From contig JAFGKN010000113.1 in the NCBI GenBank assembly GCA_016928605.1, positions 1 to 14,766 on the forward strand: 14,766 nucleotides of DNA. The letters run 5' to 3'. Under the pieces are notes generated by a model. It saw nothing but the letters and a program-made list of their open reading frames with translations, searched no databases and was not told the DNA's origin. Of the stretch, positions 1 to 14,766 are shown piece after piece (within the stretch, counting starts at the first letter, position 1; each line of letters starts with the position of its first letter). The stretch comes from Planctomycetota bacterium (GTDB taxonomy: Bacteria; Planctomycetota; UBA8108). The translations under genes and the position numbers were made by a program.

Positions 1-116
1 ATCAGCCGCCTCTCCCTCCACGTGGAGTGAGAGGCCCTGCGACAATCGTACGCTGATGCATCAGCGGCTGCGGCTCGCGGGAGGGGGAGCGGGAGCAGGA
101 GGGGGTCACCGTTGCA

Positions 117-256
117 GCTGCCGTTGCGATTACGGATGCCGTTGCGGCTGCCGTTGCGATTACGGATGCCGCTGCGGATCGCGGCTGCGGATCGCGGCTG
201 TGGATCGCCGCTGCGGTTCGCGGCTGCGGGTCGCCGCTCCGGTTGCGGTTGCGGCC
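117..256. repeat. Tandem repeat tract: a 30-bp unit x2 (117-146 and 147-176, 1 mismatch), followed by roughly six degenerate 13-bp GCGG-containing units (171-248)
   Basis: Read directly. gctgccgttgcgattacggatgccgttgcg occurs twice in tandem. The tract then continues as gctgcggatcgcg-like units, with GCGG recurring every 6-7 nt. All three reading frames are low-complexity here, so coding status is unresolved. Confidence 0.8.
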
Positions 257-465
257 AACGTTGCGCCTGCGGCGGCCGGGGCGGCTGCGGCTGGCGGCGA
301 GAGAGACTCTCCACGGCTGCCATCCTCCAGGGGAGGATGGATTCACCACAGAGACGCGGAGCGGAGGGCACTCTTCTCCGTCGCTCCGCGGCTCCGTGGT
401 GATTTCTTCTTGTCTTCTTCTTCCGAAGGCGTGAGACGCCTGGGGCTGCGGATCGCGCCCGCGGA

Positions 466-2154
466 TCAGCTCTGGTCGGAGGCCTTGCCCTTCGCCTTGC
501 GCCCTTCGGCAGCCTTGGCGGTCTCTTCCGCCGCATCAGGAGCCTTGGGGGCGGAGTCGCCGTCGGGGGGGACCATCCGGCCGAGGAACTGCGGGAGCTG
601 GATGCCGCCCAGGTTCCGCATGATGTCGAACAGCGGCGGCAGAGAGCCGCCGAGGCTCCGCAGGAAGCCGGCCGTGCTGCCCTGTCCGCCGGCGCCGCCG
701 CCGTCCCAGACGGTGATCTTGTCGAACTTGATGTTCGCGAGCGCCTTCGACGACGTCTCGGCGAGGTGGTCGAGATGCTCCAGGACGAGCATCTGGAACG
801 CGCCCTGGACTCCGCCGCAGCCTTCGACGATCTCCTGGAGCCCCTGCGCCTTCTTGGCCAGGATCTCGTACTCTCCGCGAGCCCTCGCCTCGAGCCGCGC
901 GAACTCGGCCTGCGCCTCGCCCTCGGCCTCGATGCGGATGGCCTGCGCGCGGCCCTCGGCCTCGATACGGCGCCGCTCGGCCTCCGCCTCGGCGTCGACG
1001 ATCGTGCGCGCCTTCTGCGCCTTGGCCGGCGCCTCCAGCTCGGCCCTCTGGTCCGCCTCGGTGCGCGCGCCGCGCGCCTGAGCCGCCTTGGCCTGCGCCA
1101 GGTACTGGCGGGCCTCGACCTCGGCCGCCGCCTCGCGCTTCTTCGCCTCGCCGATCAGGTATGCCTCGGCCTCCTTCACCTGGAGCTGCGCGTTCGAGGC
1201 GGCGATCTCAGCCTTCGAGGTGTTCTCGCCGGTGACCGCCTTGGCGTTCGCCTCGGCGATCTGGATGCGCATCGAGCGCTCGGCGTCCTTCACCTGCGAC
1301 TGCGTCTCGAACCGCGCCTCCTGCTCGGCGACCTCGCGCTCCCTCTGGAGAGTGGCGATGCGGATCGCCTTGTCGCGCTCGGCCTCCCGGGTGCCGATCA
1401 CCTGGAGCTTCTCCGCGTTGGCGACGGAGATCTCCTTCTCCCTCAGCGCCTCGGCCACGCCGATCGCGCCGTGCTTCTCCTGCTCGGCCACGTCGATCTC
1501 GGCCTGCTGCACGGCCTCGGAGGCCGCCTTGCGGCCGATGGCCTCGATGTAGCCGGAGTTGTCGGTGATGTCGGTGATGTTGACGTTGATGAGCACGAGG
1601 CCGATCTTGTTGAGCTCCGGCTCGAGCGACGTCTGGATGCTCGCGAGAAACGTGTCGCGGTCCCGGTTGATCTGCTCGATGGGCATGGAGGCGATCACCT
1701 GGCGGAGCTGGCCGAAGATGATGTCGCCCGCCTGCTGCGTGATGTCCCGCGTCGTGAGCCCGAGGAGGCGGACAGCCGCGTTCTGCATGATCTGGCCCGC
1801 GGTCCCGATCGCCACCGTGAAGACGCTGGGGACGTTGACCCGGATGTTCTCGGACGAGAGTGCGCCCTTGAGCGGGATCTCGATCTGGATCGGATCGAGG
1901 GACAGGAAAGCGTAGTTCTGGACCAGGGGGATGACGAAGGCTCCGCCGCCGTGATAGCAGTGGGCCGAGAGGCCCGGCTTGACCTTTCCGTAGACGACCA
2001 GGATCCGGTTCGACGGGCAGCGCTTGTACTGCTTGATCAGCGTCAGGACGATGCCGAACACGACCAGGATGGCGGCGATGATGATCGCCACCAGCCAGAA
2101 GTCGCCTTTGCCGGACCTCGCCGCCATCTCGAGGAGAAACGGTACCTCACCCAT
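466..2154 (-). CDS. Flotillin-like SPFH/band-7 membrane protein of the YqiK/FloT type, 562 aa
   Basis: N-terminal TM helix FWLVAIIIAAILVVFGIVLTLI, then an SPFH core (NRILVVYGK...FVIPLVQNYAFLSLDPIQIEI...), then a long Ala/Glu/Arg-rich coiled-coil region typical of bacterial flotillins. Its ATG overlaps the stop of the upstream NfeD-like gene as ATGGGTGA. Confidence 0.9.
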   Translation of the reverse strand: MGEVPFLLEMAARSGKGDFWLVAIIIAAILVVFGIVLTLIKQYKRCPSNRILVVYGKVKPGLSAHCYHGGGAFVIPLVQNYAFLSLDPIQIEIPLKGALSSENIRVNVPSVFTVAIGTAGQIMQNAAVRLLGLTTRDITQQAGDIIFGQLRQVIASMPIEQINRDRDTFLASIQTSLEPELNKIGLVLINVNITDITDNSGYIEAIGRKAASEAVQQAEIDVAEQEKHGAIGVAEALREKEISVANAEKLQVIGTREAERDKAIRIATLQREREVAEQEARFETQSQVKDAERSMRIQIAEANAKAVTGENTSKAEIAASNAQLQVKEAEAYLIGEAKKREAAAEVEARQYLAQAKAAQARGARTEADQRAELEAPAKAQKARTIVDAEAEAERRRIEAEGRAQAIRIEAEGEAQAEFARLEARARGEYEILAKKAQGLQEIVEGCGGVQGAFQMLVLEHLDHLAETSSKALANIKFDKITVWDGGGAGGQGSTAGFLRSLGGSLPPLFDIMRNLGGIQLPQFLGRMVPPDGDSAPKAPDAAEETAKAAEGRKAKGKASDQS

Positions 2155-2782
2155 TCGCAGTCTCCTTGTTCTCTTCCACGGGGACCACCGTCACCGTATC
2201 TGAACCCACGAGTCCCACCACGCGGATCGGAGTCCCCGTGGCGAGCCCTTCGCCTTGACTGAGGGCGGCCACCTCCACCGTGCGGTCCTGCACGCTGACG
2301 GTGACCTTGCCCCGCCCTTCCCCCTTGGGGGGGACTCTCAGATAGACCTTCCCCGTCGCTCCCACCGCGTTCTTCAGGTTGACGTTGCCCTGAGACTGGA
2401 GCCTGCGCAGGAGCATCCAGAGGTAGGCCACGAGGTAGAAGGCGACGCACCCCGAGATGCCGGCCAGCACGAGCTGGCCGACGACGCCGAAGTCGTAGGA
2501 CTCGCCGAGGAGCCCGCCGAGACCGAAGAACGTGAAGAACGCGTTCAATGTCTTGAACGAGATGACGGTGAACGAGCTCGTGGCTGCCTCGCCGCTCGCG
2601 CCCTCGCCGGCGTCGACGACGTAGCCGCCGGAGACGTCATCTGAGATCTCATCGGGCAGGTCGGCGGCCCCCACGTCCAGATCGGCATCGCCGCCGCTGT
2701 CCAACCCGATCACGAGGAGCAAGATCTGGATGACCAGGATCGTTCCTCCTGCCACCGCGCAGATCAAAAAGACGAGATGCAT
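2147..2782 (-). CDS. NfeD-like membrane protein (YqiJ-like partner of flotillin), 211 aa
   Basis: N-terminal hydrophobic helices and an acidic linker. The C-terminal beta-rich NfeD/OB-fold-like segment reads GATGKVYLRVPPKGEGRGKVTVSVQDRTVEVAALSQGEGLATGTPIRVVGLVGSDTVTVVPV. A GGAGG sits 7 nt upstream of the ATG at 2782. The gene lies directly 5' of the flotillin gene with an 8-nt overlap. Confidence 0.8.
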   Translation of the reverse strand: MHLVFLICAVAGGTILVIQILLLVIGLDSGGDADLDVGAADLPDEISDDVSGGYVVDAGEGASGEAATSSFTVISFKTLNAFFTFFGLGGLLGESYDFGVVGQLVLAGISGCVAFYLVAYLWMLLRRLQSQGNVNLKNAVGATGKVYLRVPPKGEGRGKVTVSVQDRTVEVAALSQGEGLATGTPIRVVGLVGSDTVTVVPVEENKETANG

Positions 2783-3016
2783 GGCTGACCTCCATCCGCC
2801 AGACCTTGGAGAGCGGGCAGCGATCTCCCGCCGATGAGTAGTCGTGCCCTCCGCGCCGCCGTTTCAGCCGATCGCGCCCGCCCCCTCCCGGGCGCCGTCC
2901 GCAGCGCCCAGGGGAGGCAGCAGTCCCGCTGCCGGCCTGCCCTTCGAGGCTTCTGCGGCAGGCTCGAGTTCGGGTCTTCCACGCTGGCAGCGGCCGCCAT
3001 TCTATACCAGGAAGAT

Positions 3017-3028
3017 ATTGCCGGCAAT
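3017..3028. promoter_or_regulatory. 12-bp perfect palindrome ATTGCCGGCAAT in a locally AT-richer patch of the 581-bp divergent intergenic region; candidate operator
   Basis: Read directly. It lies between the divergently transcribed NfeD-like/flotillin operon and the Tat-isomerase gene. The context is tctataccaggaagatATTGCCGGCAATcgagg. Any function is inferred. Confidence 0.3.
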
Positions 3029-3363
3029 CGAGGGGCCCCCGTTTCCGCGCGCGCGGAGCCCGCTGCGGTCGGCATCGCGGCCCGCCGCGGGCGGAATCTC
3101 GTCATCGGCCGGAAGGCTGCAGACAGTCACCATTCGCGGCCCTTTCCGGAGCGCTGTCTCCCTGCCGGCGAGAGCCGACGCTTCCGACCATGGCATTCCG
3201 CGTGCTTCTTGCGCGCGATGCCCTCGCGCCGCTATCCTGGTGCGGGATCCGGAGCTCATGGATCCCTGCGGCCGACCGGATCGCGAGCGACCGGTGCCGC
3301 GAGCAGAACCCAGAGGATGTCTCGCCGGAGCCTTCCCGCGCTCCGGCGGAGGGAGGATCGAAG

Positions 3364-4293
3364 ATGGGATCGACGACCGAGCAGCGCTTGATCAGCCGCC
3401 GCGGACTTCTCCAGGCCGGCCTGCGAGGAGCCTCGGCCCTCCTCCTCGCCCCCGCTGCCTTGCAAGCCGGTGAGGATCGCCCGCGCCCCGCCGGCGAGCC
3501 GTGGCGCATGAGGCTCTCGACCTCATCCATCCATTTCATGGGTCTGCCGATCGAGAAGGCCTGCGAGCGGATCGCGGCCCTCGGCTTCGAGGCGATCGAC
3601 ATCTGGTCGGCGCACGATGGCTGCCCCCACCTGGACGATGTCCTCAAGCGGCTCGGGCCCGAGGGGCTGAAGGAAGTTCTCTCTAAGAACCGCCTCAAGC
3701 TCTACGCCTTCTCGGTGTACCAGGGCGGCTACGCGCGCTACGCCGAGCTGCTGGGAAAGGCCGGGGGAGGCGTGGCCGTGCAGGGCAGCGCGGCCCCCTG
3801 CGAGCCCTCCGAGCTCTCAGCGAGGATGCGCGCCTTCCTGGAGGGCCTGAAGCCTCTCGAGGAGCTCGCCGAGAAGCACGACTCCTACCTCGCGATCGAG
3901 AACCACGGGAGCGCGCTCCTCGACTCGCTCGACTCCTTCAAGGCCTTCGTCGACCTCAACCGCTCCAGGCGGATCGGCATCGCGCTCGCGCCCTACCACG
4001 TGCAGGCGAGGAAGGAGTCCGTCGAGAAGGCGATCGAGATCAGCGGCCGCCAGCTCCTCTTCTTCTACGCCTGGCAGAAGGAGCCGGGAAAGAACCAGCT
4101 CCCCGGCCACGGCCCCGCCGACTTCAAGCCCTGGCTGGCGGCCCTGGCGAAGGCGCGCTACCGCTGGTACGTCAACCCCTTCATGCACGGCCACCCTCCG
4201 GCCGAGGAGATGGCCGAGGCGCTTGCGGCCTCGCGGGACTACCTCCGCAAGTCCTGGGAGGAGGTCACCAGCCGCGCGCCTGCGGCAGGGTGA
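3364..4293 (+). CDS. Sugar phosphate isomerase/epimerase, xylose-isomerase-like TIM barrel, with a twin-arginine (Tat) signal peptide
   Basis: I prefer the start at ATG 3364 (MGSTTEQRLISRRGLLQAGLRGASALLLAPAALQA), which has a GGAGGGAGGA SD 5-14 nt upstream. The six-frame ORF extends back to 3190, but that N-terminus is not protein-like. The Tat motif is SRRGLL plus a hydrophobic h-region and AxA. The rest has TIM-barrel isomerase composition (IDIWSAH...LAIENHG...). Confidence 0.8.
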   Translation: MGSTTEQRLISRRGLLQAGLRGASALLLAPAALQAGEDRPRPAGEPWRMRLSTSSIHFMGLPIEKACERIAALGFEAIDIWSAHDGCPHLDDVLKRLGPEGLKEVLSKNRLKLYAFSVYQGGYARYAELLGKAGGGVAVQGSAAPCEPSELSARMRAFLEGLKPLEELAEKHDSYLAIENHGSALLDSLDSFKAFVDLNRSRRIGIALAPYHVQARKESVEKAIEISGRQLLFFYAWQKEPGKNQLPGHGPADFKPWLAALAKARYRWYVNPFMHGHPPAEEMAEALAASRDYLRKSWEEVTSRAPAAG

Positions 4294-5662
4294 GGATGAC
4301 CGACCCGCCCTTGAAGATCGTCACCTCCCCCGTCGACTGCGAGAGGGTGACGGTCACGCACTTGACCGCCTTCGTGATGCCGCAGGCGGCTCTGTGGCGG
4401 CTGCCGTAGCCGCCGGGCAGGTCCACATCCTCCCCCACCTTCAGGAACGTGCCCGCGGAGTGGACGACGCCGTCGCCGCGGACGACGAACGCGCCGTCGA
4501 TTCCGGCGAACTCCTTGATCGTCTCGGCGAGCGTCGGATCGAGGATGTTGCGCTCCTCCTCCGGATAGCCGCGGAACGGGTTGATGACCATCTGCTGGGT
4601 GAACGGCGCGAGCTTCTCCTGGTCGCCGATGATGACGAACAGCGTGCCGACGGGGATGCCCTCGCGCCCCTCGGCCGCGAGCTCGGTCGCGAGCGAGATG
4701 ACGCGCTCCAGGACCTCGGGCGAGATCCCCGGAGCGACAGCCCCCGAGGGCGTCACGAACCGTCCGATCTGACGGCCGATCTCGACGATCGTCATCGTGT
4801 CGAGGCCGGGCCCGTCGTTTCCCGACAGGAACGCCACGATGTCCCCCCTCTGGATGAGCCCGTGCGTGAGCGCCATGAGGGCGGAGAGCTTGACGCTGGC
4901 GGCACGGCTCACGGCCATGCGAGGCAGCAGCAAGACCCTGTTCACGACCTTCTCGGCCTCCTCCGCCAGCTGCCGCGAGGCGGTCGTCACGATGAAGCTG
5001 GCGCGCTGCGGGATGCGCTTGAGGATCTCGAGCTCCTCGCGGGTCTCGATGTTGACGAGGATCGAGGAGACGCCCGTCTCCCGCGCGATCTTCTTGGCGT
5101 AGCTCAGCAGGAGCTGGGTGAGCGGCCTGGCCTTCCCCCGCAGCCGGTCGGACCGCCGGCTGTCGAGGAGCCGGATGACTGCAGCGGCGTCCGCGGCGTG
5201 GAGGATCTGATCCTTCAGCTCGGGGTTGATCAGCAGACGGGCGATGGTCCCGAGGAGGTGGACGTGCTCGGACTGGAGGTTCTCGTTGCCGACGACGAGG
5301 ACCGCCAGCACGACGGGCTCGTCGGTATCGATGCCGTAGGGAAGACCCTGAGGGTTGCGCGCGATGGCGAGGAAGATGCCCTCCACACAGTCGACGCGGG
5401 CGTGAGGAATCGCGACGCCGCTGCCCACGTAGGTGTTGACGGCAGCCTCCCGCTCCTCGATGCCGCGAAGGATCTTCTGGACGACGTCCTCCCCCGCGCC
5501 GGGCACGACGACCTTCGCGAGCGCTCGGAGGAGATCCTCCTTGGATCCGGCGGTGAGATCGAGGACCGCCTCGGGGCGGATGTACTGCGAGAGCTTCACG
5601 TCGGGCGCCGCCAGCTTCAGCCCCGTCGTCGGCGTGGACCTCTCCCGGGAAGGGCGGGTCAT
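4265..5662 (-). CDS. Three-domain signalling protein: PTS EIIA(Ntr)-type domain + pyruvate-kinase-C-terminal-like domain + diadenylate cyclase (DAC/DisA_N) domain. Putative c-di-AMP synthase under EIIA control
   Basis: The EIIA-2 signature REAAVNTYVGSGVAIPHARV and the ...DEPVVLAVLVVG...HVHLLGTIARLLINPELKDQILHAADAAAVIRLL block lie at residues ~25-165. The middle region (SFIVTTASRQLAEEAEKVVNRVLLLPRMAVSRAASVKLSALMALTHGLIQRGDIVAFLSG) resembles the PK_C alpha/beta domain. The C-terminal DAC motifs are GIDGAFVVRGDGVVHSAGTFL...GGYGSRHRAACGITKAVKCVTVTLSQSTGEVTIFKGG. A GGAGGAGGA SD lies 7 nt upstream of the ATG at 5662. Confidence 0.85.
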   Translation of the reverse strand: MTRPSRERSTPTTGLKLAAPDVKLSQYIRPEAVLDLTAGSKEDLLRALAKVVVPGAGEDVVQKILRGIEEREAAVNTYVGSGVAIPHARVDCVEGIFLAIARNPQGLPYGIDTDEPVVLAVLVVGNENLQSEHVHLLGTIARLLINPELKDQILHAADAAAVIRLLDSRRSDRLRGKARPLTQLLLSYAKKIARETGVSSILVNIETREELEILKRIPQRASFIVTTASRQLAEEAEKVVNRVLLLPRMAVSRAASVKLSALMALTHGLIQRGDIVAFLSGNDGPGLDTMTIVEIGRQIGRFVTPSGAVAPGISPEVLERVISLATELAAEGREGIPVGTLFVIIGDQEKLAPFTQQMVINPFRGYPEEERNILDPTLAETIKEFAGIDGAFVVRGDGVVHSAGTFLKVGEDVDLPGGYGSRHRAACGITKAVKCVTVTLSQSTGEVTIFKGGSVILTLPQARGW

Positions 5663-5744
5663 CGCGATCCTCCTCCAGGCCGCGCCGCCCGCGCCGGCGC
5701 ACGATCATCTCGGCCGCCGGCGCAGACCGCTCGCGGCGACTCCA

Positions 5745-6584
5745 TCATCCGGCCTGCGTCAGCCTGCGCAGCAGATCGATGCCCCCGCGGATGTCGGCCA
5801 CCCGCTGGCGCTGATCGCCGACCTCCCGCTCCACGACCAGCGGACCGCGGTAGCCGACATCTTCGAGAACCCGCACGAAGGCCTCGATGTTCACGTCGCC
5901 CTCTCCGAGGGGGACCTCCTCGCCCCACTCGCCGGGCGACTTCGGCGGATGCGCATCCTTGACGTGCACGTGCACGATGTCCGGTCCCAGCACGCGGACG
6001 GCGTCGATGGGATGGCCCATGTCGTAGAGGATCATGTTCGCCGGATCGAAGTTGACCTTGAGATTCGGCTCCGAGAGGTCCTGCAGCGTCCGCTTGAGGA
6101 GAGCCGCCGTCTCCTGGCCCGTCTCCATCGCGAAGATCACGCCGTGGCGCGCCGCCGAGCGGGCGACGTCGCGGATGCACTCGAGGAAGCTCTCGCGCTC
6201 GGGGCTCTCGGGCTCGGGGATGAACCCCGCGTGGCTGCAGAGGATCTCGAGGCCCAGCTCGGCCGTCTGGCGCGCGGCCTGCTCGAAGATCTTCTGGCGC
6301 GCCTGGCGCACGGCCGGATCCCCGAAGCCTCCCGTCTTGCGGATCGTGAGGGGACTTGTGTAGTCCTCGCCGGGAAATCCGATCATCGCGGCGGTCAGCT
6401 CGAGCGGCGAGTCCAGCAGCGCGCGGATGAGATCGGCGCCCTCCTTCCACGTCCCGTGGGTCGGATCGCCGAGCCCGATCTGCACCACGCCGGCCCCCAC
6501 CTCCTCCGCCAGCCGCATCAGCTCCGGTACGCTGGTCGCTTGCAGAGACCAGCTGCAAACTCCGAGATCCGGCGTCCACGCCAT
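5745..6584 (-). CDS. Sugar phosphate isomerase/epimerase (xylose-isomerase-like TIM barrel, AP-endonuclease-2 fold), cytoplasmic, 279 aa
   Basis: Typical family blocks: VVQIGLGD..., LEILCSHAGFIPE, VIFAMETGQE, KVNFDPANMILYDMGHPIDAVRVLGPDIVHVHVKD. No signal peptide. A GGGGAGG SD is upstream of the ATG at 6584. It sits 82 bp upstream of the EIIA-DAC gene on the same strand. Confidence 0.85.
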   Translation of the reverse strand: MAWTPDLGVCSWSLQATSVPELMRLAEEVGAGVVQIGLGDPTHGTWKEGADLIRALLDSPLELTAAMIGFPGEDYTSPLTIRKTGGFGDPAVRQARQKIFEQAARQTAELGLEILCSHAGFIPEPESPERESFLECIRDVARSAARHGVIFAMETGQETAALLKRTLQDLSEPNLKVNFDPANMILYDMGHPIDAVRVLGPDIVHVHVKDAHPPKSPGEWGEEVPLGEGDVNIEAFVRVLEDVGYRGPLVVEREVGDQRQRVADIRGGIDLLRRLTQAG

Positions 6585-6862
6585 GATGTCTACCTCCCCT
6601 CGGCCGCGATGCGAGCACCGCGGTGACAGGCTTTCCCGCCGGCCGGCGGCCGCCCCGGCGGCGGACCGAAAGACCTGGCCGGCTCGTCCATCCCGGCCCG
6701 AGGCCCGGGAAACGGATCATCCGCTCATCTTGCGAAGGACAGTCCTCGTCGAAGGGTTGCGCGCATCGACGAGCTGGCCGACAATGCTCGCAGCTCATTT
6801 TGACGGGGCGCTAGAGCCCGTCAAGCCCCAAGACTCCGAGGACGGCCGGGAGGCGAGAATCG

Positions 6863-8131
6863 ATGCAGGCTGCGACCGTGGTCCGGGTGGCGCTCGTCGG
6901 AGGCGGCATGTTCGGTGGAGACGTCGTCCTGCGCTCGATCGAGGACCTGGAGCGCTGCGGCATCGCCCCCTACCTCGGGCGGGTGGGGCTCGATCTGCGC
7001 GCCCGCGAGCTGGCCGCGGCGCGGTTCCGGCTGGTGGCGATCGGAACCAGGACGCCGCAGACCGCCCGCCGCCTCTGCGCGGCCTACGCGGCGAAGGTCC
7101 CGGACAGCTCGCCCGAGCCCTTCTGGGGCGAGGAGCCCTGGAAGGAGATCCTCGACCGCCACGACGTGCAGATCCTCTACATCGCGACGCCCGACCACCT
7201 CCACTTCGAGCCCGCGGCGCATGCCCTGCGCAGCGGAGCTCACGTCATGGTCGAGAAGCCCCTCACCCTCCGCCTCGCCGAGGCGCGCGAGATCCTCGAG
7301 CTGGCCCGCGCCCGGGGACTCATCGCGGGCGTCGACATGCACAAGCGCTACGATCCCTGCCACCGGTTCCTCTTCGAGGAGCTGGTGCCGAGGATCGGCA
7401 CTCCCCTCTACGGCAGGGCTGTGCTCGAGGAGCCCCTCGAGGTCTCCACGCGGACGTTCCTGTGGGCCGAGAGATCCAATCCCTTCAGCTACGTCGGAGT
7501 TCACTGGCTCGACCTCTTCGGCCACTACCTCGCGGCGACTCCCGTCTCCGTGCACGCGGTCGGCCAGAAGGAGCTGCTCGTGAACTGGGACCGAGAGGGA
7601 GGCGGCCGGAAGATCGACACCTTCGATGCGATGCAGGTCTCGGTCGACTACGAGGGCGGCCTGCGCGTCTACTACGTGACCAGCTGGATCAACCCCCCGG
7701 AGTTCGAGGCACCGGTCAACCAGGAGATGGAGATCGCCGGCACCCGGGGCAAGATCGAGTTCGACCAGCAGGACCGCGGCCTGCGCGCCACCATCTCCGG
7801 CCTCGGGACGCGCACCTACAACCCCCACTTCACGGCCGACGTGCGCCGTCTCGGAGGCTGCGCCCACCCCGCCTACGACGGCTACGGCAAGGACTCGATC
7901 GTCGCCATCACCGCGAGAGCGCTCGAGGTGATCCAGGGGCTCGCGACCCGCGATGAGCTCGCCGGCACGTATCCCGACGTGGAGAGCTCGCTGCCGACGG
8001 TCTCGGTCATCGAGGCAGCGGAGGAGGTGGCCCGCCGCAACTGGCGCCGCCAGCGCGGCGGCCGCGGCACGCCTGTCACCGCCCGCATCCGCGCCGACGG
8101 GTACGACATCGTCGACCCGCTGGCCGGTTGA
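6863..8131 (+). CDS. Gfo/Idh/MocA-family NAD(P)-dependent oxidoreductase, 422 aa
   Basis: N-terminal Rossmann motif VRVALVGGGMFGG. Conserved blocks ILYIATPDHLHFEPAAHALRSGAHVMVEKPL and GVDMHKRYDP. A GAGG SD is upstream of the ATG. It is divergent from the 5745-6584 isomerase gene, with a 278-bp shared upstream region. Confidence 0.9.
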   Translation: MQAATVVRVALVGGGMFGGDVVLRSIEDLERCGIAPYLGRVGLDLRARELAAARFRLVAIGTRTPQTARRLCAAYAAKVPDSSPEPFWGEEPWKEILDRHDVQILYIATPDHLHFEPAAHALRSGAHVMVEKPLTLRLAEAREILELARARGLIAGVDMHKRYDPCHRFLFEELVPRIGTPLYGRAVLEEPLEVSTRTFLWAERSNPFSYVGVHWLDLFGHYLAATPVSVHAVGQKELLVNWDREGGGRKIDTFDAMQVSVDYEGGLRVYYVTSWINPPEFEAPVNQEMEIAGTRGKIEFDQQDRGLRATISGLGTRTYNPHFTADVRRLGGCAHPAYDGYGKDSIVAITARALEVIQGLATRDELAGTYPDVESSLPTVSVIEAAEEVARRNWRRQRGGRGTPVTARIRADGYDIVDPLAG

Positions 8132-8136
8132 CCCTC

Positions 8137-8151
8137 GCCGGCTCGGCCGGC
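8137..8151 (+). terminator. Weak candidate hairpin GCCGGCtcgGCCGGC just after the Gfo/Idh/MocA stop, with a T-rich run (cacttttgtttcc) about 35 nt downstream
   Basis: Inverted repeat read directly. The U-tract is not adjacent to the stem, so this is not a canonical intrinsic terminator. It lies between convergent genes. Confidence 0.2.
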
Positions 8152-8204
8152 CGCCGCGCTACCCGATCGTTGACCGGATTTGCCACTTTTGTTTCCGAGA
8201 TACA

Positions 8205-8289
8205 CCTAACGCCTCAGCTCACCGATGGCGGCCCCCCACTGGCTCCCGAATCGCCTGGAGGCGTCGCAGGGCCGCCATTCGGTGCAGCG
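8205..8289. repeat. Copy 1 of an 85-bp dispersed direct repeat (partner at 8866-8950; 80/85 identical, no indels). It covers 9 nt of 3' junction, the stop codon and the last 24 codons of the minus-strand gene 8214-8864
   Basis: Direct alignment at a 661-bp offset. Copy 1 is cctaacgcctcagctcaccgatggcggccccccactggctccCgaatCgccTggaggcgtcgCAgggccgccattcggtgcagcg. The five mismatches are capitalised. Confidence 0.9.
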
Positions 8290-8864
8290 GTTTTGTTGGG
8301 CCTTGGCAGAACTCCTCGACCTAGCGAAGTGCCCACGGCGGCCTGCCACAGCACCATGTAAAGGCCCAATATAAGCTTAACGGAACCGTATGACGCCAGA
8401 CCCTTGGTGGCTGCAAGCAGATGCCCCCCCATCAACCCACCAATTGCAGTGCCAACAACCACAGTCGTGCGAGTAGCTCTCACCCAACCTGGCCGTCCAA
8501 AAAAGAGCAAGCTCGCCAGCACCAGTGAGCCCAGAAAACCTGAGAACGCGAACGCCGCAACCATGTATGCCCCCGGGTGGCGGGTCGTCGAGGCGGCGAT
8601 GTGCCATGCAACTGGGTAAACGCCGCAACTGGCGATCAGAGCGGCCGCGGTTCTTGGCCAACCGTCTCGGGCCAAGCGGGAGATGGGGAGGATGACTATC
8701 AGTGCGAACACGAGGCCCGGCCAGACAATATGGTCGTAGGTCTTTTGCTCGCGCACCACGTAGAGCATGCTAGAGTCTGCCATCCCACACGACAACACGC
8801 CCGAAACGAGACCAAGCAGTCCCCAGCGCACGGCCCACCTGGCAACTTTACGCATTGAACTCAT
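8214..8864 (-). CDS. Hypothetical polytopic membrane protein (216 aa) ending in a Pro/Gly/Ser-rich tail AAPNGGPATPPGDSGASGGPPSVS
   Basis: Five or six hydrophobic helices (for example LVFALIVILPI, YMVAAFAFSGFLGSLVLASLLFF, TTVVVGTAIGGLMGGHLLAA, VKLILGLYMVLWQAAV). Its ATG lies 10 nt after the stop of the upstream gene, over TGAGGCGTTAGGcATG. It sits in a lower-GC segment. I recognise no family. Confidence 0.6.
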   Translation of the reverse strand: MSSMRKVARWAVRWGLLGLVSGVLSCGMADSSMLYVVREQKTYDHIVWPGLVFALIVILPISRLARDGWPRTAAALIASCGVYPVAWHIAASTTRHPGAYMVAAFAFSGFLGSLVLASLLFFGRPGWVRATRTTVVVGTAIGGLMGGHLLAATKGLASYGSVKLILGLYMVLWQAAVGTSLGRGVLPRPNKTAAPNGGPATPPGDSGASGGPPSVS

Positions 8865-8865
8865 G

Positions 8866-8950
8866 CCTAACGCCTCAGCTCACCGATGGCGGCCCCCCAC
8901 TGGCTCCGGAATTGCCGGGAGGCGTCGGGGGGCCGCCATTCGGTGCAGCG
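8866..8950. repeat. Copy 2 of the 85-bp direct repeat, covering the stop and last 24 codons of gene 8875-9321 plus the 9-nt junction that here leads into the start of the next gene
   Basis: See copy 1. Three of the five mismatches are synonymous on the coding (minus) strand. The other two give A->P and D->N. Confidence 0.9.
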
Positions 8951-9321
8951 TATGGTTCGCTGAGTGAGGTCATCGGTTTTCTGGCTGGATCCGGTATTCT
9001 CACTGATTCAGAGCAATGCGGACAGTCCTTCACGATACCGTTGAACCACGAAACCACCACTGTGCCCCCACACTCAGGACATTGAAAGTGCCTCCGGCCC
9101 ATGATCGGCTTCGGATCAGCTACGTGGCCCCGCCAGTAGCCAATGATGCCGAACACCACTCCACCAGCGGGAATGCCAGCGATCGAATAGAGAATAATCA
9201 TAGGCCCCTTCACCACTCCACAGGCGTCGTGGAAAACAAGGAGGCCCACGCAAAACCCCGAAAGAGCCCCAGCACACAGGCCGATCAGAAACCAGAGCAG
9301 CGTCTGTTGAGTCTTCGTCAT
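8875..9321 (-). CDS. Hypothetical small membrane protein with two N-terminal TM helices, a C4 zinc-ribbon (CPEC...CPHC) and the shared tail AAPNGGPPTPPGNSGASGGPPSVS, 148 aa
   Basis: I prefer the start at ATG 9321 (MTKTQQTLLWFLIGLCAGALSGFCVGLLVF...), which has an AAGGG upstream. The six-frame ORF extends to 9429, but that would overlap the upstream gene by about 70 nt. The zinc ribbon is RRHFQCPECGGTVVVSWFNGIVKDCPHCSESVRIP. Confidence 0.55.
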   Translation of the reverse strand: MTKTQQTLLWFLIGLCAGALSGFCVGLLVFHDACGVVKGPMIILYSIAGIPAGGVVFGIIGYWRGHVADPKPIMGRRHFQCPECGGTVVVSWFNGIVKDCPHCSESVRIPDPARKPMTSLSEPYAAPNGGPPTPPGNSGASGGPPSVS

Positions 9322-9358
9322 TGGGATAGCCCTTTCGCCCTCGGTTATTGCCTCGCGA

Positions 9359-9784
9359 TCAAGGTGAGCGACTGAGGTTACTCGTTCTGCTTCCCGCCGG
9401 GGGCTTGTCTTTCCTCGTGTGCTGTTCAACGGCCGCCCTGATTAGGAAAGCCATCCCGCCGATCCCAAGCCCAGCCAGTCCGTACACGATGCCGTACAGG
9501 AAGAACGCCAGGAAGAACGCCTCGGCCGACAAGCCGGCACTGATCAGAGGAGGCACACGTGCCGCTGCGACCACCCCCCCGATCGCCGGGTAGTAGAGCA
9601 GCGCGAATCTGGACTTGGATACTCGGATGGCACAAACGAAGGCGACACCCATCAAGACCAGCGGGATTACAGCAATACAGAAAAGAATCTCACGGGCAGC
9701 TCGCTCAAAGCCATTCCCCAGCACAGTGGCCGGCTTGACGAACAGAACAAGAAGAATGAGTGCGGACAATATTAATCGTTGCAT
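9359..9784 (-). CDS. Hypothetical 4-TM small membrane protein, 141 aa
   Basis: I prefer the start at ATG 9784 (MQRLILSALILLVLFVKP...). The ORF extends to 9937, but that N-terminus is Arg-rich and non-hydrophobic. There are four hydrophobic helices. The local GC is the lowest in the window. No obvious SD. Its ATG overlaps the stop of the candidate upstream ORF by 11 nt (CGATGCAACGATTAA). Confidence 0.5.
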   Translation of the reverse strand: MQRLILSALILLVLFVKPATVLGNGFERAAREILFCIAVIPLVLMGVAFVCAIRVSKSRFALLYYPAIGGVVAAARVPPLISAGLSAEAFFLAFFLYGIVYGLAGLGIGGMAFLIRAAVEQHTRKDKPPAGSRTSNLSRSP

Positions 9785-10410
9785 CGTGTCTCGCGTGCCG
9801 AACGCCGATTGGACTGTTCCACCAGAACTCTTCCGTGCCGCCTTCGCGCGCCGTCTATAGTCTTCGGATGGCAGAACTCCCACGATTGCACATCGCTGCT
9901 TCCACGGCCTTTGGATGTTGGCGGCGTCAGCGCCCACTGGGTTTCGCCCGCAGGCGCGCGGCGCTGCGTATGTTTTTCGCAGCCATACAGCGGGTGTCGA
10001 GTCTCATGGGTTCGATTCGCCATACCTCGCGGTGATCGCTCAGCTCCACCATCGGCTCGACGGCGCTCTCGGCGCGTCACGGGCCGCGGCAGACTCGTCA
10101 GCCAGTCCTTTGAGCGCGGGTCGCGGCCGGCGGTGATCTTGCAGATCTGGACACCGGCGTCTTTCAGGCGCGGGCGAAGAGGCGCGAAACCGCGCAGCGT
10201 GGCCCGGCACAGAAGGCTCCGCATGCGGGGCGCGAGCGAGTCGAGATGCGCCGCAGCGGAATACCCTCCGGCGCGCGAGCCGGCTCTTCCGGACCGACTG
10301 GCAGCTCCTGCCTTCAGCACGCTCCGCCGTTCCCCCGCGGCGATCCCGCCAACTCGCCGGTAGAGGAAACGGCGCGCGTAGATGCGCGGGCTCTGAGGTA
10401 ATGCCACCAT
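9772..10410 (-). CDS. Candidate hypothetical protein (~212 aa, MVALPQSPRIYARRFLYRRVGG...), uncertain
   Basis: This frame keeps a higher third-position GC than the alternative frames over 10410-10040, and an AGAGGG SD-like sequence lies 5-8 nt upstream of ATG 10410. However the protein is Arg-rich and matches no family I recognise. It could be an off-frame artefact or a decayed gene. Confidence 0.25.
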   Translation of the reverse strand: MVALPQSPRIYARRFLYRRVGGIAAGERRSVLKAGAASRSGRAGSRAGGYSAAAHLDSLAPRMRSLLCRATLRGFAPLRPRLKDAGVQICKITAGRDPRSKDWLTSLPRPVTRRERRRADGGAERSPRGMANRTHETRHPLYGCEKHTQRRAPAGETQWALTPPTSKGRGSSDVQSWEFCHPKTIDGARRRHGRVLVEQSNRRSARETRCND

Positions 10411-10616
10411 CTTGCCCTCTCTGCAGCGACGGACGCTCGGAGCCTTCACACACCGAACGGAGGCAGCGTAGCAGAGCTGGTCGTCGCCAGCAAGCTCTTT
10501 GCACCGAGCTGCCCGCTTCGACTCAGGCAGCATGCTCCGGATCCGTCGGCGGTCTCGACACATCCTCCCGTCACAGCGGCGCAATCCTCTTCGTCTTCTT
10601 TCCTGGTGCCCTGCGC

Positions 10617-12437
10617 TCAGGGCTCCTTCCGCCGCGGCGCGGCTCTTGCCTCGCGCTCGACGTTCGCCTCGAGGAGGAAGTTGAGGAGCAGGTTCTCGAT
10701 GGCGTGCTCGTCCTCGCGGGATCCCTGCTTCCCGAAGTGGCTCAGGACGACCATCACGACTCCCGGAAGCCGCCCGCGAGGCGCCGAAGGCTGGCCCGGC
10801 GGCACGGAGCTTCCCGGCCGCACCGCGAGCGCGACGAGGGAATCGGCGCCGAGCTTCTTCTGGAGCTCGCCGCTGCCCAGAAGACCGACGACCTTCTGAG
10901 CGTTCCGGACGCGCAGCGCGTAGCTCTCGTCGTCGATCCACCACTCGTGGCGGATCCTGAGCAGGCTCGCCGGCTCCGGCTCCTCGTCATCCACCCCGGC
11001 CACGACGGTCTTCCCGCGCCCGGCGCCGCCTGCGGCCTTCTCTTCCTTCTCCTCCTCTCCATCCTCTTCATCGCTGAAATCGAGGTCCAGGTCGAAGGAC
11101 ACTCCGCCGGAGCCGCCATCCTCACCGGGCACGAAGATGCCCTTCAGGTAGGGATGCAGGGCCATGCCCCGCACGGGGACGACATCGACGCTCGACTCCG
11201 CCAGCTTGTCGCCCGCCGTCACGCTTTCCGGATAGGCCTTCTCCATCAGCTCCTTGACCACCCAGTCCTCGCAGAAGATGTAGCCTCCGGACTTGACGAA
11301 GCTCTTCAGCTTCTCGATCTGGGGCCCGGTCAGCTCCGCGGAGAAAGGGATGTGCTTGTCGCAGCCCGTGCAGGGGTAGAGGCGGTCGTTCTTCACCTTC
11401 CCCGGCTTGCAGAACGGGCAGATGCAGATGCGATGGAACTGGGTGCAGTTGATGAGGATGGCGCCCGTCTCGCGCAGGTCGAAGTCGAGAAAGTCCTCGC
11501 GCTCCACCACCGTGTGTGGGATGTTCATCCGCTCGAGGACCTCGTCCATGTGGTCGTTGTTGAGGTCCTTGCGGACCAGAACGGGGTGGCTCTTCTTCGT
11601 GAAGACCGCGCTCAGGACGACGACGCCTTTCTTCGGCGCGCGCTCGAGCGCGAGGTACCGCTCGCGGCGCTGGACATCGAGGCTGTCGACGGCCGTGCCG
11701 GTCTCCGACCTGTCCTGCTCCTGGCGGCCGGCCAGCGGCTTGCCCTGGTTCTTCTTCCACCAGCCCTCCCAGTTCACCGAGTTGAATCCGTACTTCTTGC
11801 CGGTGAGGTTCGTCAGGCTCTCGATCACCGTGATCACCGGCTCGCCGGAGTCGGACGCTCCCCGCTTCTCCTCCGCCTTCAGGACTTCGATGAGGGCGTC
11901 CACCGCCGCCGGAGAGCGGATGAAGCCGAGCTGGGCGGCCGCCTGGACCCGGAGATCATCCGCGGCGGACTCGTCGAGGAGCACCGGCCGGAGGGCCGCC
12001 GGAGCCTGCCGGGACGTGTTCCTGGAAAGCGCGTAGAGCACGTCCCGCGCCACGGGCTGCGCGCGGTTCTTCACGATGAACTCGCCGACCGCGCCGAGCG
12101 CCGGCCGGTCGGTGAAGCTGACGGCCCCCCGCAGGAGCGACCAGTAGAGGCTCTCGCGGCTCGAGGGGATCTGCCGGATGAGGGAGAGGAGCCGGCGGGC
12201 GGAGTCGGCTCCTCCGGCGCGGACGACGCCGGAGAGCGCATCCTCGATGGCATCCATGTCGTCGGCGCGCAGCGCCTTCTTCAGGCTTTCCAGAGCCGAC
12301 CGGGCGCCGCCGTCGCTCTCCGGCGCCGCGGCGGCGAAGAGAGCAGCGCCGGCGATCGCCAGCGACAGGAACAAGGCTCTCGGCGGAAACGAGGTGCGCA
12401 TGAAGTCCTCCATGCTCGAAGACATCCTTCGCTCCAT
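10617..12437 (-). CDS. Putative secreted protein with N-terminal HEAT/PBS-lyase-like repeats, a Cys cluster (CICPFCKPG...CTGC) and an acidic tract, ~606 aa
   Basis: Signal-peptide-like N-terminus MRTSFPPRALFLSLAIAGAALFAAAAPES, reached from ATG 12437 (GAGGA SD 7 nt upstream). In-frame alternative ATGs lie at 12425, 12413 and 12401. HEAT-like repeats include AAVDALIEVLKAEE and LRVQAAAQLGFIRSPAAVD. The core contains ...GAILINCTQFHRICICPFCKPGKVKNDRLYPCTGCDKHIPF...GGYIFCEDWVVKEL... and the acidic run DLDLDFSDEEDGEEEKEEK. The 997-aa six-frame ORF (to 13610) is an artefactual upstream extension through the SDR gene. Confidence 0.75.
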   Translation of the reverse strand: MERRMSSSMEDFMRTSFPPRALFLSLAIAGAALFAAAAPESDGGARSALESLKKALRADDMDAIEDALSGVVRAGGADSARRLLSLIRQIPSSRESLYWSLLRGAVSFTDRPALGAVGEFIVKNRAQPVARDVLYALSRNTSRQAPAALRPVLLDESAADDLRVQAAAQLGFIRSPAAVDALIEVLKAEEKRGASDSGEPVITVIESLTNLTGKKYGFNSVNWEGWWKKNQGKPLAGRQEQDRSETGTAVDSLDVQRRERYLALERAPKKGVVVLSAVFTKKSHPVLVRKDLNNDHMDEVLERMNIPHTVVEREDFLDFDLRETGAILINCTQFHRICICPFCKPGKVKNDRLYPCTGCDKHIPFSAELTGPQIEKLKSFVKSGGYIFCEDWVVKELMEKAYPESVTAGDKLAESSVDVVPVRGMALHPYLKGIFVPGEDGGSGGVSFDLDLDFSDEEDGEEEKEEKAAGGAGRGKTVVAGVDDEEPEPASLLRIRHEWWIDDESYALRVRNAQKVVGLLGSGELQKKLGADSLVALAVRPGSSVPPGQPSAPRGRLPGVVMVVLSHFGKQGSREDEHAIENLLLNFLLEANVEREARAAPRRKEP

Positions 12438-12475
12438 GGTACGTCCTCGGCGGGCCGGGCGCCTCTGGAATACCA

Positions 12476-13225
12476 TCAATAAGTCGCGCGTCCCCCGGAG
12501 ATGTCGTAGCAGAAGCCGGTGGAGAAGCTGCACCGCTCCGACGCGAGGAAGGCGACGAGCTCGGCCACCTCCTCCGGCCGGCCAACACGGCCCATCGGGA
12601 TCTTCGAGATCATGTACTCGCGGACCTCCGGAGCGACCTGCTCGAGGATCTCGGTCTCGATCACGGCGGGGGCGACCGCGTGGACGAGGATGCCATCCGT
12701 CGCGACCTCCTTGGCGTAGGCCTTGGTCATCCCTATGAGGGCGGCCTTCGTCATGGAGTAGGCGACGAGGCCCGGATTGCCCTCCTTGCCGGCGATGGAG
12801 GCGATGTTGACGATCCGGCCGTAGCCCGCGCGCATGAAATGAGGATGCGCCGCCGCGCAGAAGAACCAGGGCCCCTTGACGTTGACGGCGAAGATGCGGT
12901 CGATGTCCTCCTCGCTCTGGCTCGCGAGCGGTCCCGGCGTCCCCGCGATCCCCGCGTTGTTCACGAGGATGTCCAGGCGCCCGAGGGAAGAGACCGCGAG
13001 CTCGACGACCTCCTCGGCCCGCGAGCGGACCGTGACGTCGGCAGCGAGCGCCAGGACGCGCTCGCCCTCCGGATCGAGCTCTCGCGCAGCCGCCTCGGCG
13101 GCCGCGCGGTCCCGGTCGACGATGGCCACGCCGGCCGCGCCCTCCTCGACGAACTTTCGCGCGCAGGCCCGCCCGATGCCCCGCGCGCCCCCCGTGACGA
13201 TGGCGACTCGGTCCTTGAGCAGCAT
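12476..13225 (-). CDS. Short-chain dehydrogenase/reductase (SDR), 3-oxoacyl-ACP-reductase-like, 249 aa
   Basis: TGGARGIGRA cofactor motif in MLLKDRVAIVTGGARGIGRACARKF. NNAG motif (DILVNNAGI). Catalytic SIAG...YSMTKAA (YxxxK). An AAGGGAG SD lies 8 nt upstream of ATG 13225. The upstream six-frame extension to 13498 is Arg-rich junk. Confidence 0.9.
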   Translation of the reverse strand: MLLKDRVAIVTGGARGIGRACARKFVEEGAAGVAIVDRDRAAAEAAARELDPEGERVLALAADVTVRSRAEEVVELAVSSLGRLDILVNNAGIAGTPGPLASQSEEDIDRIFAVNVKGPWFFCAAAHPHFMRAGYGRIVNIASIAGKEGNPGLVAYSMTKAALIGMTKAYAKEVATDGILVHAVAPAVIETEILEQVAPEVREYMISKIPMGRVGRPEEVAELVAFLASERCSFSTGFCYDISGGRATY

Positions 13226-13400
13226 TCTCGAACTCCCTTCGTAGAATCCAGCGTACGGTACCCTGCGGGCCGCCCGGCAGTCCAGCCCCATCGCGCGATC
13301 CAGTCCGCGCCGTCCCGTCCCACTGGCGAAGGAGCCTCCGCCCCTGCGCGGCCGCTCCGCTCCGTGCCCACCCGGCTGGGATACCCGAGCTGCCATCGCC

Positions 13401-13494
13401 CGCGGCGAGGCAGCTGCGCCCATCGCGGCGCCGCCGGCGGCGTGGCCCGGGCCGAGGCAGCTGCGCCCATCGCGGCGCCGCCGGCGGCGTGGCC
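13401..13494. repeat. Intergenic tandem direct repeat, 2 x 47 bp (13401-13447 and 13448-13494). Each copy contains the 14-bp perfect palindrome CGCCGCCGGCGGCG (13429-13442 and 13476-13489)
   Basis: Read directly. The unit cgSggcGAGGCAGCTGCGCCCATCGCGGCGCCGCCGGCGGCGTGGCC occurs twice back-to-back. The tract lies in the 453-bp divergent region between the SDR operon and the Tat-isomerase gene at 13679. Confidence 0.85.
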
Positions 13495-13678
13495 TCATCC
13501 TCCTCCCGCCGCCCGCGGAAACCGCCGTTTCCCGCTCCGCTCGGCTCCGTGGGATGGTTACTATGCGGGAGTCCGTCCACCAGCACCGGCTCCCCCCGCG
13601 GCGAAGGCAACGGCCGGGAGCTGGGCTCTACTGCCGCAGCGCAGCCTTCCAGACCGCGACAACCGGAGACGATACGAC

Positions 13679-14614
13679 ATGTCGACAGACCGATCCGCGC
13701 AGCGCCGAACCTCCCGCCGTCGCTTCATCCGCATCGCGGCCGCCGCCGGCGCCGGAGCAGCCCTGCTGACCGGCGCGGGCGCGCGGGGAGAGTCGACCGC
13801 CTCCAGCGTTCCCCCAGAGGACTACCGCATCGCCCACGGCCGCATCCGCCAGTCGGTGATGGGCTGGTGCTTCCAGCCGATGCCGGTCGAGGATCTCATC
13901 GAGGCATGCCACCGCATGGGCATGCCGGCGATGGAGGGCATCGACAGCAAGTACTATCCGATGCTCAAGGAGCGCGGCATGGTCCCGGGGATCGTGGGAA
14001 GCCACGGCTTCGGCCGCGGGCCGCTGAGCCGCGACAACCACGCCTTCTGCCTCGAGAAGCTGCGGGCCGGCATCGAGCTCGCCGCCGAGTTCGGATCTCC
14101 CTCCGTGATCACCTTCACCGGCATGCGGGAGAAGGGCATCTCCGACGACCAGGCGATGCGCAACTGCTTGGATTGCTGGAAGCAGGTGATCGCGCTCGCG
14201 GAGGAGAAGAAGGTGAACCTCTGCCTCGAGCACCTGAACACGCGCGACTCCAGCCATCCCATGAAGGGCCATCCCGGCTACTTCGGGAACGACATCGACC
14301 TCTGCATCGAGCTGGCCCGCCGGGTCGGCTCGCCGCGCATGAAGGTGCTCTTCGACATCTACCACGTGCAGATCATGAACGGCGACATCATCCGCCGCCT
14401 CCGCGCGTCGAAGGACTTCATCGGTCACATCCACACAGCCGGCGTCCCCGGCCGCGGCGAGATCGACGAGACGCAGGAGATCAACTATCCGGCCGTCATG
14501 CGGGCGATCCTTGAGATCGGCTACGAGGGCTTCGTCGCGCAGGAGTTCATCCCCACCTGGCCGGACAAGCTCGCCGCCCTGCGCCACGCCGTGAAGCTCT
14601 GCGACGTGGCATGA
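13679..14614 (+). CDS. Sugar phosphate isomerase/epimerase (xylose-isomerase-like TIM barrel; hydroxypyruvate-isomerase-like) with a Tat signal peptide, 311 aa
   Basis: Start ATG 13679, with a GGAGA SD about 10 nt upstream. Tat motif SRRRFIRIAAAAGAGAALLTGAGA. TIM-barrel isomerase blocks are PSVITFTGM, NLCLEHLN, KVLFDIYHVQIM, IGHIHTAG and FVAQEFIP. The long six-frame ORF from 12680 is an artefactual 5' extension. Confidence 0.85.
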   Translation: MSTDRSAQRRTSRRRFIRIAAAAGAGAALLTGAGARGESTASSVPPEDYRIAHGRIRQSVMGWCFQPMPVEDLIEACHRMGMPAMEGIDSKYYPMLKERGMVPGIVGSHGFGRGPLSRDNHAFCLEKLRAGIELAAEFGSPSVITFTGMREKGISDDQAMRNCLDCWKQVIALAEEKKVNLCLEHLNTRDSSHPMKGHPGYFGNDIDLCIELARRVGSPRMKVLFDIYHVQIMNGDIIRRLRASKDFIGHIHTAGVPGRGEIDETQEINYPAVMRAILEIGYEGFVAQEFIPTWPDKLAALRHAVKLCDVA

Positions 14615-14766
14615 GACCTGGGCGGCCGCGGACGCAGGCCGAGCCCGGCCGCAGGGCGAGCGGACTCCCGCCGCGCGGCGGCTAAGTGCCCCATTTCATA
14701 AGTCATTGTCAGTTTGAGCGGCCATTTCGTCCGCCGGCTTCGTTGCACTCAGTCGACGATATTCTC

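Follow-up and report, generated by a model that had tools for sequence, protein, structure and literature searches.

Introduction

Diadenylate cyclase (DAC) domains work as head-to-head dimers that convert two ATP into cyclic di-AMP (c-di-AMP), a second messenger under whose control stands, among other physiology, the potassium homeostasis of Firmicutes. The main membrane-anchored cyclase of bacteria, CdaA, is regulated by CdaR and GlmM; to our knowledge, the control of c-di-AMP synthesis is largely unknown, well-studied cyclases included. EIIA-2 domains of the phosphotransferase system (PTS) are phosphorylated on the histidine of a conserved motif by HPr or NPr. Among the systems closest to the one described here, the archaeal cyclases DacZ and CdaZ, whose N-terminal fold resembles the C-terminal domain of pyruvate kinase (PK_C), are experimentally active c-di-AMP synthases (PMC6741144, PMC10249747), and PtsN (EIIA-Ntr) controls potassium homeostasis, through KdpD, in Proteobacteria (bioRxiv 10.1101/2023.07.05.547876). 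Here we analyse a gene in which an EIIA-2 domain and a DacZ-like cyclase are encoded as one protein. It lies on contig JAFGKN010000113.1 of a Planctomycetota bacterium (lineage UBA8108; GenBank assembly GCA_016928605.1), of which we analysed positions 1 to 14,766 of the forward strand, a stretch of 14,766 nucleotides that we call the window. At a probability of about 0.55, we read the protein as a soluble cyclase of the DacZ/CdaZ lineage, predicted to be catalytically competent, that would have acquired an N-terminal EIIA-2 sensory input through which phosphorylation of His87 tunes c-di-AMP production.

Results

An intact gene for a three-domain cyclase

The cyclase gene occupies positions 4265..5662 of the minus strand, with an ATG at 5662 and a TGA at 4265-4267 in the list of open reading frames (ORFs) and the translation, and encodes 465 amino acids before the stop. 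Its GC content at third codon positions (GC3) is 0.93, continuous from end to end, and because this signal is uninterrupted over 4265-5662, the gene reads as a single frame without a frameshift or assembly join between its domains. Moreover, an independent metagenome contig (Logan SRR13394437) encodes an identical protein. A first-pass annotation of the DNA, made before any database was consulted, had named a frameshift or join between the domains as something that would undo its reading of the gene, and the unbroken GC3 and the identical protein together rule this out. The Shine-Dalgarno-like sequence GGAGGAGG (5669..5676, minus strand), read directly from the DNA, stands 6 nt before the ATG, which supports 5662 as the true start. 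Another ORF, at 5659-6798 on the minus strand, overlaps the start of the cyclase gene by 4 nt and was at one point taken as a translationally coupled gene; it was rejected when GC3 showed that it is not the coding frame.

Along the protein, Pfam places three domains whose scores all exceed the gathering threshold: PTS_EIIA_2 (PF00359, 75.1 bits) at residues 34-167 (5162..5563, minus strand); DacZ_P (PF21755, 39.4 bits, cutoff 27.4), a pyruvate-kinase-C-like alpha/beta domain, at residues 183-302 (4757..5116, minus strand); and the DAC catalytic domain (PF02457, 69.8 bits, cutoff 27) at residues 329-454 (4301..4678, minus strand). All three had been called in the first-pass annotation, with boundaries within about 10 residues of these, and an AlphaFold2 model concurs. 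This model, computed from an alignment of 110 full-length sequences at 34-75% identity, has a mean predicted local distance difference test score (pLDDT) of 90.8 and a predicted template modelling score (pTM) of 0.74, and is disordered only in the linker at 171-176 and over the first 19 residues. In a Foldseek comparison with the PDB, the N-terminal domain best matched IIA-Ntr/PtsN structures (2a0j, 3urr, 4gqx and 1a6j), with target-normalised template modelling scores of 0.84-0.85, the C-terminal domain matched CdaA, DacA and CdaM with a probability of 1.00, and pyruvate kinase (1e0t) was matched as well. Together with the DacZ_P score, the pyruvate kinase match bears out the earlier description of the middle domain as the pyruvate-kinase-C-like domain of CdaZ-type cyclases; PF02887 (PK_C) is likewise among the precomputed annotations of several homologs. 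A sequence search of the PDB with the protein matched CdaA structures and found no solved structure of a DacZ-type or EIIA-fused cyclase.

The equivalog models for both of the protein's better-known relatives stayed below their cutoffs. The NCBIfam DacZ model NF041371 scored 99.7 bits (cutoff 430) and aligned to residues 244-459 only, and the PtsN model TIGR01419 scored 47.1 bits (cutoff 138.7) on the EIIA domain, for which a fruA-type EIIA model reached a higher score of 65.4. Judged by its sequence, the domain is not assignable to the Ntr subfamily: the EIIA-2 half of the original EIIA(Ntr) call stands, and the label 'Ntr-type' is a functional guess from the absence of permeases.

Conservation of the cyclase and phosphotransfer sites

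We scored residue conservation over 190 family sequences, made up of 110 database proteins and the genes from 80 genome loci. The cyclase motifs that had been described as intact were confirmed in the translation: DGA at D389-G390-A391 (4490..4498, minus strand) and RHR at R422-H423-R424 (4391..4399, minus strand), both in the DAC active site, and SQSTG at 441-445. Residues D389, G390, R422, H423, S441 and S443 are invariant (190/190) and A391 is present in 188/190, with position 424 variable over the family (alanine in 87 and arginine in 73 of the 190). The invariance of these residues indicates that the family is under selection as an enzyme, with a working rather than a degenerate catalytic domain.

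On the EIIA side, the phospho-acceptor context GVAIPHARV was found as first described, with His87 intact (codon 5402..5404, minus strand, verified). We take this residue to be the phospho-acceptor, from its homology to His73 of PtsN and His65 of EIIA-Mtl. It is kept in 168/189 family sequences and in 89/95 representatives of 50% identity clusters, and residues R71, E72, G82, A84 and P86 are nearly invariant among family sequences, the R71-E72 pair being present in the target protein. Retention of His87 alongside a near-invariant EIIA site points to selection on the phosphotransfer site. Because so many of the less redundant representatives retain it, a phospho-acceptor histidine is the dominant, and probably the ancestral, state of the family. 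The second conserved histidine of EIIA-2 domains, His133 (codon 5264..5266, minus strand, verified), is less conserved than His87, with histidine in 119, tyrosine in 45 and other residues in 26 of the 190 sequences.

A widespread and already catalogued family

The first-pass annotation had held that the known DAC classes include no EIIA-fused form, implying that the architecture is rare. Neither the rarity nor the novelty survived database searches. In a word-indexed search, all three Pfam domains were found together in more than 100 clusters, whose members are 37-75% identical to the target, align over 94-100% of its length and bear database names such as 'diadenylate cyclase', 'PTS sugar transporter subunit IIA' and 'DisA.../mannitol/fructose-specific IIA (Ntr-type)'. 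When one genome per GTDB species was scanned, at least 598 genomes contained a relative, and nearly all of the best 80 of these align at query residues ~22-463. The relatives come from several phyla; those among the matches listed belong to Planctomycetota, Verrucomicrobiota (Opitutaceae, Puniceicoccales), Kiritimatiellae, Spirochaetota, Chitinivibrionales/Chitinispirillaceae/Fibrobacter and Hydrogenedentes, with one metagenome-assembled genome (MAG) labelled Deltaproteobacteria.

At E <= 1e-30, an exhaustive phmmer search over 1.84 billion cluster representatives matched 283 clusters, and we classified the best 150 of these representatives (50% identity clusters) with our own per-domain hidden Markov models. 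EIIA and DAC occur together in 95 of the 150, comprising 88 proteins with a recognisable DacZ_P domain, 6 with a diverged middle domain and 1 with an extra N-terminal acyltransferase, and about 50 of the 150 are DacZ_P-DAC proteins of ~300 amino acids without EIIA. From this domain make-up, the DacZ_P-DAC core is a module and EIIA its commonest add-on. Rarer relatives carry other partners, among them three proteins, each of which could be a gene-calling artefact: DHH/DHHA1 (phosphodiesterase-type domains) fused to DacZ_P-DAC (P0226, 680 amino acids), an FAD oxidoreductase fused with DacZ_P-DAC (P0240, 702 amino acids) and a PlsC-type acyltransferase ahead of EIIA-DacZ_P-DAC (P0129, 714 amino acids); the acyltransferase part of the last corresponds to the gene that overlaps the cyclase gene in Chitinivibrionales loci. 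An ORF upstream of an EIIA-less relative (locus L075), guessed to encode a receiver domain, had no Pfam match and was rejected.

The family has also been recorded in parts of the literature. Pfam holds DacZ_P as a curated model for the middle domain, and surveys file bacterial relatives under DacZ: one from 2026 used the InterPro DacZ signature to place DacZ in 19 gut Verrucomicrobiota species (PMC12901056), and Galperin (2023), as cited in that survey, used architecture to divide the cyclases among 22 families, one of which may hold the EIIA-DacZ_P-DAC proteins. Cyclases of Planctomycetales and Verrucomicrobia were placed with DacZ/CdaZ by Braun et al. (2019), who also mention the older classes 'DacC' and 'DacD', with examples from Opitutae, Puniceicoccaceae, a spirochaete and deltaproteobacteria (PMC6741144). 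These example organisms match the taxa that carry EIIA-DacZ_P-DAC, and the two classes may be the same proteins. EIIA-DacZ_P-DAC is therefore a widespread, already catalogued family, for which full-text literature searches found no experimental study. The fusion is real and is not a new kind of enzyme, and of the earlier proviso that it might be 'common and already characterised', only the first half applies.

Genomic context

Directly upstream of the cyclase gene, on the same strand, lies a gene for a 279-amino-acid, xylose-isomerase-like TIM barrel of the AP_endonuc_2 family (5745..6584, minus strand; Pfam, 118 bits). The two genes are separated by 82 nt without a terminator-like site, and the sole promoter-like match on the minus strand is upstream of the TIM-barrel gene. 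The same gene precedes the cyclase, on the same strand, in 6/6 full-length Planctomycetota loci, the window counted; in the other five it is found at 9085-9918 (L002), 6162-6995 (L003), 3597-4433 (L004), 904-1767 (L005) and 3694-4563 (L006). Given the strong ribosome-binding site, the short gap without a terminator and the recurrence of the pair, the two genes are likely to form a two-gene operon. The TIM-barrel protein resembles sugar-(phosphate) isomerases/epimerases, and its similarity to L-ribulose-5-phosphate 3-epimerase is sub-threshold only. Neighbours in other groups are different: a PlsC-type acyltransferase gene overlapping upstream and Pgi downstream in Chitinivibrionales and Fibrobacter, ClpA in Spirochaetes, and NuoA, RpoD and DnaG in Verrucomicrobia.

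ORF and Pfam gene calls found no PTS component of any kind around the cyclase gene in the window, in agreement with the earlier remark that transporter-type PTS components are missing there. Neither the window nor any of 80 related loci contains genes for EIIB or EIIC, or neighbours of the rpoN/hpf/npr type. Over the 81 loci together, ORF clustering and tblastn with hand-entered HPr and PtsN query sequences found no conserved PTS neighbours. In L002, a related Planctomycetota genome of 7.9 Mb, a stand-alone 163-amino-acid PTS_EIIA_2 protein (2107-2598, minus strand; 102 bits) is encoded between genes for a MoxR-type AAA ATPase and a ThiF-family protein, 7.5 kb from a cyclase whose position 87 is valine. 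Another EIIA-2-like region (GLAFPH) forms the C terminus of a 281-amino-acid protein with a cysteine-rich, zinc-ribbon-like N terminus in Pontiellaceae bacterium B12219 (L036, 7970-8815), where it is encoded two genes upstream of the bacterium's own EIIA-DacZ_P-DAC gene. The latter protein hints that EIIA-2 may be a reused regulatory module in bacteria of the Planctomycetes, Verrucomicrobia and Chlamydiae (PVC) group.

The remaining genes of the window were called by GC3 and Pfam. Downstream of the cyclase gene are those for a flotillin (466-2154, minus strand), an unknown 211-amino-acid protein (2147-2782, minus strand) and an AP_endonuc_2 TIM barrel (3190-4293, plus strand) that converges on the cyclase gene; the 3' ends of these two convergent genes overlap by 29 nt, without a terminator-like hairpin between them. 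On the other side follow a Gfo/Idh/MocA oxidoreductase (6863-8131, plus strand), a HEAT-repeat protein (about 10617-12450, minus strand), an SDR (12476-13498, minus strand) and, towards the right-hand edge of the window, a further TIM barrel. Between the oxidoreductase and HEAT-repeat genes, from ~8200 to 10500, GC content drops to 58-64%, compared with ~69%, and the GC3 periodicity of the flanking genes is lost. This segment contains an 85-nt direct repeat, 94% identical, at 8205-8289 and 8866-8950 (661 nt apart), whose copies make up the 3' ends of two small membrane-protein ORFs that lie side by side on the minus strand (8214-8864 and 8875-9429). The two encoded proteins share the tail APNGGPxTPPGxSGASGGPPSVS and belong to no convincing Pfam family. 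Rfam and tRNA scans of the whole window, this segment included, found nothing; the segment could be foreign, fast-evolving or largely non-coding.

Discussion

How an EIIA domain might control the cyclase

For c-di-AMP to be made from two ATP, two DAC domains of the protein must meet head-to-head. In the mechanism that we propose, the DacZ_P domain, possibly with an allosteric ligand bound to it, would set the oligomeric geometry in which they do so. Depending on the phosphorylation of His87 by an HPr/NPr-type carrier, the EIIA domain would shift DAC geometry through DacZ_P. The carrier itself would be charged from phosphoenolpyruvate (PEP) by the transporter-independent regulatory EI of Planctomycetes, so that c-di-AMP output would follow the PEP/pyruvate balance and thus carbon and energy status. 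Phosphorylation-gated synthesis of c-di-AMP, as suggested by the first-pass annotation, is plausible, and the stand-alone EIIA-2 gene of L002 also counts in its favour. PtsP-NPr is the wrong name for the relay, because ptsP, which encodes the GAF-containing EI-Ntr, is reported only from Proteobacteria, whereas in Planctomycetes PTS transporters are reported to be missing and the regulatory EI belongs to 'group R' (PMC2405797).

Several observations weigh against a cyclase tuned by phosphorylation of His87. In 21/189 family sequences another residue takes the place of this histidine: Q in 10, V in 5, Y in 3, N in 2 and M in 1, with no case of D or E. These sequences come from separate lineages that include several Planctomycetota, Chitinispirillaceae, one Fibrobacterota MAG and Puniceicoccales. 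The losses, which concern about 6-11% of members, appear to be independent, and the members affected keep an otherwise intact EIIA motif and an intact cyclase (loci L018-L023, L067, L025, L035, L055, L001 and L002, and proteins P0026, P0029, P0030, P0033, P0039, P0045-P0047 and P0058 of the family alignment). Phosphorylation is therefore not obligatory family-wide, and in these members the domain must act without it. In addition, ORF clustering found no gene for EI, HPr or HprK near the cyclase in any of the 81 loci, tblastn with the hand-entered HPr queries had no match in ~1.2 Mb of flanks, and full-text literature searches turned up no experimental or biochemical work on any member of the EIIA-DAC fusion.

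The histidine-less members would fit an EIIA domain that acts independently of phosphorylation, docking either a small ligand or a partner such as HPr, Ser-phosphorylated or not, and controlling the cyclase by this binding. Repeated loss of His87 next to near-invariant R71, E72, G82, A84 and P86 and an intact DAC domain is what docking would lead one to expect; the replacements are neutral (Q, V, N, M, Y) rather than phosphomimetic, and in E. coli it is the unphosphorylated EIIA-Ntr that binds KdpD (bioRxiv 10.1101/2023.07.05.547876). We nevertheless think docking unlikely to be the general explanation: retention of His87 in ~89-94% of the family, and in the target together with His133, is hard to explain without phosphotransfer, and the histidine-less forms could be lineages without the relay, in which the enzyme is locked in one state. 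The signal could instead enter at the middle domain, with a metabolite such as a sugar phosphate, perhaps tied to the TIM-barrel isomerase/epimerase, as the main input at DacZ_P and EIIA as a secondary one. In pyruvate kinase, the PK_C fold serves as the allosteric effector domain, and in DacZ/CdaZ it has been proposed to be regulatory (PMC6741144); the ~50 of the best 150 relatives that lack EIIA imply that the core works alone; and in two phyla a gene for a sugar-phosphate enzyme is conserved next to the cyclase, namely that for the TIM barrel in Planctomycetota and that for Pgi in Chitinivibrionales. Yet no ligand-binding residues were identified in DacZ_P, the neighbours vary between phyla and may reflect plain synteny, and the TIM-barrel protein has no assignable specificity. 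As the principal input, a metabolite at DacZ_P therefore strikes us as distinctly improbable, although it is compatible with a phosphorylation-tuned cyclase and does not exclude it.

The database name 'PTS sugar transporter subunit IIA' would make the protein part of a sugar transporter, and recent preprints report that DAC domains occur in defence systems with other nucleotides as products, which would turn this one into a DAC-like source of another nucleotide signal for anti-phage defence. Either idea can hardly be right. EIIB and EIIC are absent from all of the loci and Planctomycetes have no PTS transporters (PMC2405797); the gene's surroundings are housekeeping and metabolic, with no defence island; and the canonical DGA and RH(R) residues are kept in a family that is vertically conserved over whole phyla. 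We thus retain the cyclase tuned by His87 phosphorylation as the preferred reading. More tentatively, and at somewhat less than even odds, it may extend to a general scheme in which PVC bacteria, Fibrobacterota and Spirochaetota have wired a transporter-less PTS phosphorelay into c-di-AMP synthesis, the histidine-less lineages have become uncoupled from it, and Planctomycetota have added a sugar phosphate of the TIM-barrel enzyme, sensed by DacZ_P.

If the phosphorylation-tuned cyclase is confirmed, it would tie c-di-AMP to carbon and energy status in several phyla that are large and little studied, and would join two regulators of potassium with separate research histories, namely PtsN in Proteobacteria and c-di-AMP in Firmicutes. 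Under the more general scheme, EIIA-Ntr and c-di-AMP, the two best-known bacterial regulators of potassium and osmolytes, would in these phyla belong to one and the same pathway. The hypothesis is directly testable in vitro because the chemistry of the sensor is known, namely histidine phosphorylation from PEP via EI and HPr, and the natural histidine-less variants are ready-made controls. The locus described here adds no new architecture; its worth is that of a typical, intact representative.

Comparison with known systems

The target shares with the archaeal cyclases DacZ of Haloferax volcanii and CdaZ of Methanocaldococcus jannaschii a core in which a pyruvate-kinase-C-like domain precedes the C-terminal DAC domain, and like them it is soluble, without transmembrane segments. 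The archaeal proteins have two domains and ~270 amino acids, whereas the target is bacterial, has 465 amino acids and carries an extra N-terminal EIIA-2 domain of ~170 residues; its middle domain belongs to the DacZ_P family of Pfam and not to the archaeal type. CdaA (DacA) has a homologous DAC domain with the same DGA and RHR motifs, but is preceded by three N-terminal transmembrane helices, in place of which the soluble target has its EIIA and PK_C-like domains.

With PtsN, the target shares the EIIA fold, the GxAxPH motif of the phospho-acceptor and the R-E pair upstream of it. PtsN is a free protein of ~160 amino acids, whereas the EIIA domain here is fused to its presumed output enzyme and is encoded outside an rpoN-type cluster, and the EI upstream of it would be of group R rather than the PtsP of the nitrogen-PTS. 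Because the organisms lack PTS permeases, a purely regulatory role is expected for the domain. The closest likeness is to the catalogued bacterial EIIA-DacZ_P-DAC proteins (PF00359+PF21755+PF02457), with which the target has the same domain order and full-length homology, and among which it is an ordinary member that keeps both His87 and His133, residues that some of the others have lost. It is thus a straightforward member of this bacterial family, and neither a DacZ equivalog nor a PtsN.

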